Source: Escherichia coli
Lineage (GTDB): Bacteria > Pseudomonadota > Gammaproteobacteria > Enterobacterales > Enterobacteriaceae
Assembly (NCBI RefSeq): GCF_013315695.1
Contig: NZ_CP054353.1
Reading direction: 5' to 3' (one strand)
Length of the DNA stretch: 64,000 bases
Made by a program: the position numbers and the translations under genes. Positions 59,743 through 60,100 of the stretch are shown piece after piece (within the stretch, counting starts at the first letter, position 1; every line of letters starts with the position of its first letter). Below the pieces are notes generated by a model. It had not been told where the DNA came from. It did no database searches and saw only the letters and a list, made by a program, of their open reading frames with translations.

Positions 59743-60100
59743 TCAGAACGACCAGTTCGCACCAGCCACCGCGTTCCACGGGGATTCCACACCGGCACCA
59801 TGGCTATACCCCACCCCGAGATGCCCGCTTAACGAACTGCTGAATGAGGCTTTAATACCTGCCTGGTATATTCCACGTCTGTCCGACAAATCATTGACAA
59901 AATTACCGTCATTATTCACTTTCACCCGGTTATCATCGACAAATTCTTTGCGCACAGCCGCCTTCAACCACGGCTCAACTTCCATACCGTTACCCAGACG
60001 CATGTTGTAACTCAGCGTTGCGCCCAGTTCACGATATATACTGCGGGTATCGACTGATTTCGACCCCATGCCATTGGATAAATGATAGTAGCGTCTAAGT
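59743..60100 (-). pseudogene. Autotransporter beta-barrel C-terminal remnant
   Basis: Last ~115 residues (...GIKASFSSSLSGHLGVGYSHGAGVESPWNAVAGANWSF) look like an autotransporter translocator C-terminus; no passenger domain upstream. Confidence 0.55.

Follow-up and report, generated by a model that had tools for sequence, protein, structure and literature searches.

The DNA analysed here is a 64,000-nucleotide (nt) stretch of the Escherichia coli contig NZ_CP054353.1, hereafter called the window, and the element in question is a short autotransporter-derived segment that corresponds to the pseudogene ycgI of E. coli K-12. The gene order at the locus is pliG, ycgJ, minC, minD, minE (plus strand), the ycgI remnant (minus strand), an open reading frame (ORF) of 39 amino acids (aa), ymgJ, ymgI, ymgG, ymgD, and a large ycgH-like autotransporter gene. 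The remnant extends from position 59743 to 60087 on the minus strand and comprises the last 114 codons and the TGA stop codon of an AIDA-type, YpjA/EhaD-like autotransporter, as identified by Pfam, TIGR01414, tblastn, and the Prokaryotic Genome Annotation Pipeline (PGAP). A previous sequence-only reading had extended the feature to 60100, but the part with homology stops at 60087. That reading also placed it downstream of minE (59111 to 59377, plus strand), the neighbour that anchors the locus; the remnant does adjoin minE, but it lies on the minus strand and is convergent with minE rather than co-directional.

The minus-strand ORF at positions 59743 to 60186 encodes 147 aa, and its likeness to autotransporter beta-domains is confined to the last 114 residues. 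The ORF matched the Pfam family PF03797 (Autotransporter beta-domain) at profile positions 152 to 254 of 255 (E value of 5.1e-11) and TIGR01414 at profile positions 319 to 432 of 432 (E value of 5.7e-21), and residues 166 to 284 of the 284-residue BrkA beta-domain align with the remnant. When the whole window was searched by tblastn with the complete 1134-aa protein encoded at the same site in strain 405, residues 1021 to 1134 were found at positions 60087 to 59746 with 97.4% identity (E value of 1e-64), and a search with K-12 YpjA (1526 aa) placed residues 1413 to 1526 at the same positions with 93.9% identity. The remaining tblastn matches were those of approximately 25% identity to the separate ycgH-like gene at 61402 to 63999, and neither query revealed further autotransporter pieces in any frame across the entire window. 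The observation is confirmed as real and is far beyond chance. The sequence-only reading, which had described only the C-terminal ~115 residues of a translocator domain with no passenger domain or signal peptide upstream, agrees with these results, the length being 114 residues. The tblastn check that it had proposed yielded no out-of-frame upstream fragments at the locus, and a contiguous in-frame passenger, which would mark the gene as intact, was looked for in the same searches and was not found.

Among the hallmarks of type Va autotransporters, the C-terminal aromatic beta-signal (x-W-S-F) is present, the remnant terminating in ...AGANWSF before its stop codon. The full translocator domain is absent, as the remnant begins at residue 1021 of the strain 405 protein, in which the domain spans residues 873 to 1112, and it represents approximately the last 43% of the beta-barrel domain. 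From the alignment with BrkA and the proportion of the Pfam profile that is matched, the remnant is estimated to keep roughly the final five of the twelve barrel strands. An AlphaFold2 model of the intact beta-domain, built from a 4-sequence alignment for the strand count, had a mean predicted local distance difference test (pLDDT) score of 33 and was unusable. The N-terminal Sec signal peptide is also missing; in the intact allele, the start codon and the signal peptide that follows it (MNRISRYYFHRSVLSLLIAAMIYAPPGMTA...) fall within the 3,089 bp that the window lacks relative to strain 405, as does the passenger, of which the two full-length queries detected nothing upstream.

PGAP annotates the identical sequence in another record (L001 6364 to 6708, equal to window positions 59743 to 60087) as a pseudogene, [quoted passage not shown] and the locus is annotated in K-12 MG1655 as the pseudogene ycgI (b4521). 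Both in the identical-sequence strain and in K-12, the segment lies between minE and ymgJ and is convergent with minE, and the breakpoint of the truncation is the same as that in K-12. In a filamentation screen of strain UTI89, C1357, a ycgI homologue next to minCDE, was called a pseudogene (PMC6206680). A review of the K-12 outer-membrane proteome includes YcgI among the modelled outer-membrane proteins (OMPs), with a barrel that is "deformed or broken" (PMC7383365), which is expected because the sequence is a fragment. Under the name ycgI the feature has already been catalogued, and its condition is one of ordinary gene decay.

A complete autotransporter gene occupies the site between minE and ymgJ in strains 405, 7/2, EcPF15, and 21AH004, where it encodes AIDA-type proteins of 1126 to 1136 aa (1134 aa in strain 405; gene lengths of 3,411 nt in EcPF15 and 3,381 nt in 21AH004). 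The protein of strain 405 combines a plausible signal peptide with six PF16168 AIDA repeats, a pertactin-like PF03212 region, a lengthy (NP)n linker, and a complete PF03797 domain, and PGAP labels the allele "ypjA: adhesin-like autotransporter YpjA/EhaD" (WP_032153649.1 and relatives). The repeats, the pertactin region, the barrel, and the similarity to YpjA place the ancestral gene among the YpjA/EhaD-like AIDA-I-type adhesins, an assignment judged on the intact allele and not on the remnant. Over the 114 residues, the intact alleles vary by just one amino acid among themselves. A search of the literature on ycgI, ycgH, ypjA, and EhaD returned no experimental work on the intact minE-adjacent allele.

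Alignment of the window with the strain 405 locus (L002) by blastn gave two collinear blocks at 98% identity, window 59001 to 60087 with L002 8622 to 9707 and window 60087 to 61500 with L002 12797 to 14210. They are separated by a single clean gap of 3,089 bp (L002 9708 to 12796) with 1 nt (A) of microhomology, and a base-by-base view together with blastn sets the deletion junction at 60087/60088. The lost segment includes the 29 bp before the ATG with the ribosome-binding region, the start codon, the signal peptide, the passenger, and approximately 57% of the barrel. In all six carriers examined, which belong to different lineages (the window, K-12, O145, 81009, N1420, and GF4-3), the sequence at the junction (GGATAAATGATA/GTAGCGTCTAAGTGACC) was unchanged, and a 100-nt probe spanning it aligned to K-12 in one piece with 97% identity. 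The comparison with intact-gene strains suggested by the sequence-only reading was made with 405, EcPF15, and 21AH004, all complete at this site; together with the 3,089-bp deletion and the pseudogene calls of PGAP and the K-12 annotation, it bears out the view of a decayed gene, in which "adhesin" would hold by homology. A scan of species-representative genomes with a junction 22-mer matched no other Escherichia species, but exact matching missed even the E. coli representative, so the scan is uninformative on the age of the deletion. Its matches were one chimeric-looking "Clostridiales" contig from a metagenome-assembled genome (MAG) and one chance match in Leuconostoc. In the former (URTG01000020.1, "uncultured Clostridiales bacterium UMGS1323"), positions 8920 to 9537 hold 618 nt of the ycgI junction region at 96% identity, joined to 8.9 kb matching no E. 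coli genome, and the contig of this public MAG probably reflects chimeric assembly or faulty binning.

The remnant shows several marks of neutral drift. In K-12, the remnant has lost 1 nt at position 110. A separate loss of 1 nt, at position 16, is common to 81009 and N1420, and a further one is found at position 276 in 81009; PGAP marks the copies of both these strains as "frameshifted." No such shift interrupts the reading frame in the window or O145. Among five deletion carriers, 9.6% of the columns in the remnant are variable, as against 1.1% in minE and 1.4% in ymgG, a level comparable to the 11.8 to 15.7% of the adjacent intergenic DNA. Private changes in the window copy amount to 5 nt in four codons, two of them replacement and two silent. 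Substitutions in 114 codons are too few for an estimate of the ratio of nonsynonymous to synonymous rates, and frameshifts and column variability were used instead. The AT-rich variable region that houses the remnant is probably silenced. Across window positions 59435 to 60487, nucleotide diversity among E. coli strains is approximately 4 to 8 times that of the flanking genes, with a mean pairwise identity of 92.5 to 97% compared with 98.8 to 99.5% in minE, ymgG, and ymgD, so that the interval forms a pocket in which constraint is locally relaxed or recombination has acted.

The distribution of the alleles was surveyed in 5,426 complete E. coli genomes. Window positions 59380 to 60700 are 100% identical to FDAARGOS_497 and have matches in 5,424 of the genomes. 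The deletion junction is spanned in one piece in 4,503 genomes (83%), while the 5' coding end of the gene, joined to ymgJ-ymgI-ymgG, is kept at the locus in 421 (7.8%). The 3' sequence beyond the junction is joined to the minE flank in 713 genomes, and the excess over 421 is largely of the O157:H7 type, in which an IS1203 truncation leaves 753 nt of the 3' end of the gene. Further losses have occurred at the site: a second deletion in GF4-3 leaves approximately 67 nt, and the whole region is lost beside an IS1 in AR_0369.

The feature is very probably a dead gene fragment, the E. coli ycgI pseudogene, produced by a deletion of approximately 3.1 kb in an ancestral autotransporter gene. In the ancestral E. 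coli, the interval between minE and ymgJ would have held a complete type Va autotransporter gene, paralogous to ypjA/ehaD but diverged from it, and its product would have consisted of a signal peptide, a passenger with AIDA repeats and a pertactin region, an (NP)n linker, and a barrel of 12 strands. One illegitimate deletion, with one end 29 bp ahead of the start codon and the other in mid-barrel, would have spared only the 3'-terminal 114 codons with their stop codon and the terminator hairpin, which became fused to the old leader, and the remnant would now be drifting neutrally. Since the remnant has neither its own start codon nor a signal peptide and retains under half a barrel, it cannot be exported or form a translocator, and it is presumably neither expressed nor functional. 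The ancestral protein may be regarded as an adhesin because of its homology to YpjA/EhaD, and the deletion seems to have had a single origin. Three observations weigh against this interpretation. The window and O145 keep the 114 codons in frame within the 147-aa ORF, and on the sequence alone translation could occur here. The remnant persists in 83% of the genomes, though neutral persistence of only ~345 bp is unremarkable. Finally, the deletion allele is found on at least two 3' haplotypes, and its history is not one clean descent alone. The remnant haplotypes form two groups, one in which the window goes with the intact alleles (positions 189, 253, and 329) and the other in which K-12, O145, and O157 go with ypjA at several sites, a pattern suggesting that recombination or gene conversion has shaped the deletion allele over time.

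It is very unlikely that the remnant has been retained as a cis element that terminates or insulates transcription where the minCDE transcript converges with that from the ymgJ side. Such a role would fit the GC-rich hairpin (AAACUGCGC-UUCG-GCGCAGUUU) on the minus strand at 59710 to 59731, 12 nt past the stop codon of the remnant, the fold of 59685 to 59745 (minus strand) having a free energy of -18.3 kcal/mol and a z score of -2.9. It would also fit the two terminator-like hairpins on the plus strand after minE, at 59402 to 59429 and 59647 to 59664, approximately 220 nt apart. However, the minus-strand hairpin, which is probably the transcription terminator of the ancestral gene, lies outside the coding remnant, so the retention of 345 bp is left unexplained, and the region is poorly conserved and entirely absent from some strains. 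A candidate small RNA between the two plus-strand terminators (59435 to 59672) was dropped, the spacer being poorly conserved and rich in insertions and deletions among five strains. An Rfam search of 59000 to 61000 gave no match at E values up to 1.

There is likewise only a slim chance that the fusion of leader and remnant has consequences of its own, either by yielding, in strains with the frame still open such as this one, a 147-aa cytoplasmic product from the retained promoter on the ymgJ side or by providing, in the leader and the 3' end, homology arms that recombine with ypjA. The would-be arms measure ~360 bp (~87% identity to ypjA) and 345 bp (~96% identity), and if this were true they could re-create a full gene or drive rearrangements between the minE-adjacent locus and ypjA. 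The mixture of haplotypes seen in the remnant would fit some exchange with ypjA.

A related and extremely improbable proposal is that the 147-aa ORF, from a GTG at 60186 to the TGA at 59743, is an expressed small protein, YcgI, made from the retained ymgJ/leader promoter region and given a new role, such as interaction with the beta-barrel assembly machinery (BAM) via the beta-signal. The ORF is open in the window and O145, with the ...NWSF beta-signal-like C-terminal motif intact; the DNA upstream of the junction, on the promoter side, has been kept, and YcgI is listed among the modelled K-12 OMPs, though as the broken barrel mentioned above. The 33 codons in frame with the remnant back to the GTG (60088 to 60186, minus strand) are conserved. 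However, in-frame translation of the window and comparison with the leader of the intact allele show that they come from what was the 5' untranslated leader before the deletion and encode no part of the autotransporter. Searches of Pfam and TIGR01414 found no family match for these 33 residues, and they are not signal-like. The ORF has no signal peptide and no ATG, and the GTG is not preceded by a clear Shine-Dalgarno sequence. Moreover, the ORF is destroyed by frameshifts in K-12, 81009, and N1420 and mostly deleted in GF4-3, its variability is at the level of the noncoding flanks, and under half a barrel cannot close.

The resemblance between the minE locus and ypjA extends from 10 bp past the stop codon to approximately 384 bp upstream of the ATG, including the 39-aa ORF and a ymgJ-like leader. 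The remnant shares 95.9% DNA identity with the 3' end of K-12 ypjA, the far side of the junction shares 92% with the ypjA leader, and the deleted segment shares 91 to 93% with ypjA. The intact allele has 79.5% aa identity with YpjA over ~1000 C-terminal residues, has much less at the N terminus, and is 392 aa shorter; given this divergence and difference in length, the two are therefore paralogues and not recent copies. That the fragment is instead an ectopic partial copy or gene-conversion tract of the ypjA 3' end and leader inserted beside minE would accord with these identities on both sides of the junction, with the span of the two-locus homology, and with the ypjA variants in some remnant haplotypes, but it is scarcely credible when intact alleles so diverged from ypjA are found at this very site, between flanks that are both collinear with the window, when O157:H7 keeps 408 nt more of the gene here, and when deletion within a gene that was complete at the site offers a simpler account.

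The leader containing the 39-aa ORF and ymgJ (window 60088 to 60402; L002 12797 to 13151) has a paralogous copy upstream of ypjA (L012 6766 to 7121) with ~87% DNA identity, which indicates that the duplicated module consists of the small ORFs, the autotransporter, and the 10 bp past the stop codon. The intact minE-adjacent gene (L002 9363 to 12767, with equivalents in ~421 genomes) is automatically named "ypjA," and the same genomes appear to hold the true ypjA elsewhere; each listed intact-allele record shows two matching places. Naming by automated annotation may conflate the two paralogues in studies of the presence or absence of adhesin genes.

Beyond the remnant, the sequence-only reading described an AT-rich noncoding stretch. 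The region is AT rich (G+C content of 27.5 to 34% over 60200 to 60700), but annotators place the 39-aa hypothetical protein, ymgJ, and ymgI there. The 39-aa ORF (60122 to 60241, minus strand) lies in the old leader, is called "hypothetical protein" by PGAP and "ATPase" in some strains, has no family match found, and has an equivalent upstream of ypjA. The small ORF ymgJ (60202 to 60387, minus strand; PGAP and K-12 annotation) was directly upstream of the lost gene on the same strand and was spared by the deletion. Farther along, the ycgH-like autotransporter gene ("ECIAI39_1904 family"; 61402 to 63999, minus strand) is open over all 865 codons within the window, its 5' end being cut by the window edge. 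The FDAARGOS_497 gene has an internal stop near codon 12, where its sequence differs from that of the window, a difference that indicates a mosaic neighbourhood and shows that the window does not come from FDAARGOS_497. In K-12, ycgH is also a pseudogene.

As a textbook case of adhesin-gene decay, the remnant has little significance beyond annotation; the by-products of the analysis are a precise map of the deletion and a census in which ~83% of genomes carry the deletion and ~8% keep the gene. The closest known counterpart is K-12 ycgI (b4521), which matches the window in position (minE, ycgI, ymgJ ymgI ymgG ymgD ycgH), orientation, and junction, with 94.8% DNA identity over 345 nt. However, the K-12 copy is frameshifted after codon ~36, whereas the window copy is in frame and has two private changes, E to G and G to D. 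The intact minE-adjacent allele of 405, 7/2, EcPF15, and 21AH004 represents the orthologous locus, with 97.4% identity over the C-terminal 114 residues and flanks 98% identical to those of the window, but it is full length, with a pertactin-like autochaperone region and a complete barrel, whereas the window is short by 3,089 bp. In O157:H7 the same gene is disabled at the same site, but by an IS1203 insertion and rearrangement with another breakpoint, which constitutes an independent event. YpjA/EhaD, an AIDA-I-type adhesin that PMC12547504 cites as enhancing biofilm formation and the one protein of this group for which such activity is reported, is a paralogue (K-12 b2647) whose last 114 residues are 93.9% identical to the remnant and whose homology continues through the leader with its small ORFs. 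In contrast, ypjA lies at another chromosomal locus among prophage- or island-type genes, and its 1526-aa product has a diverged passenger N terminus.
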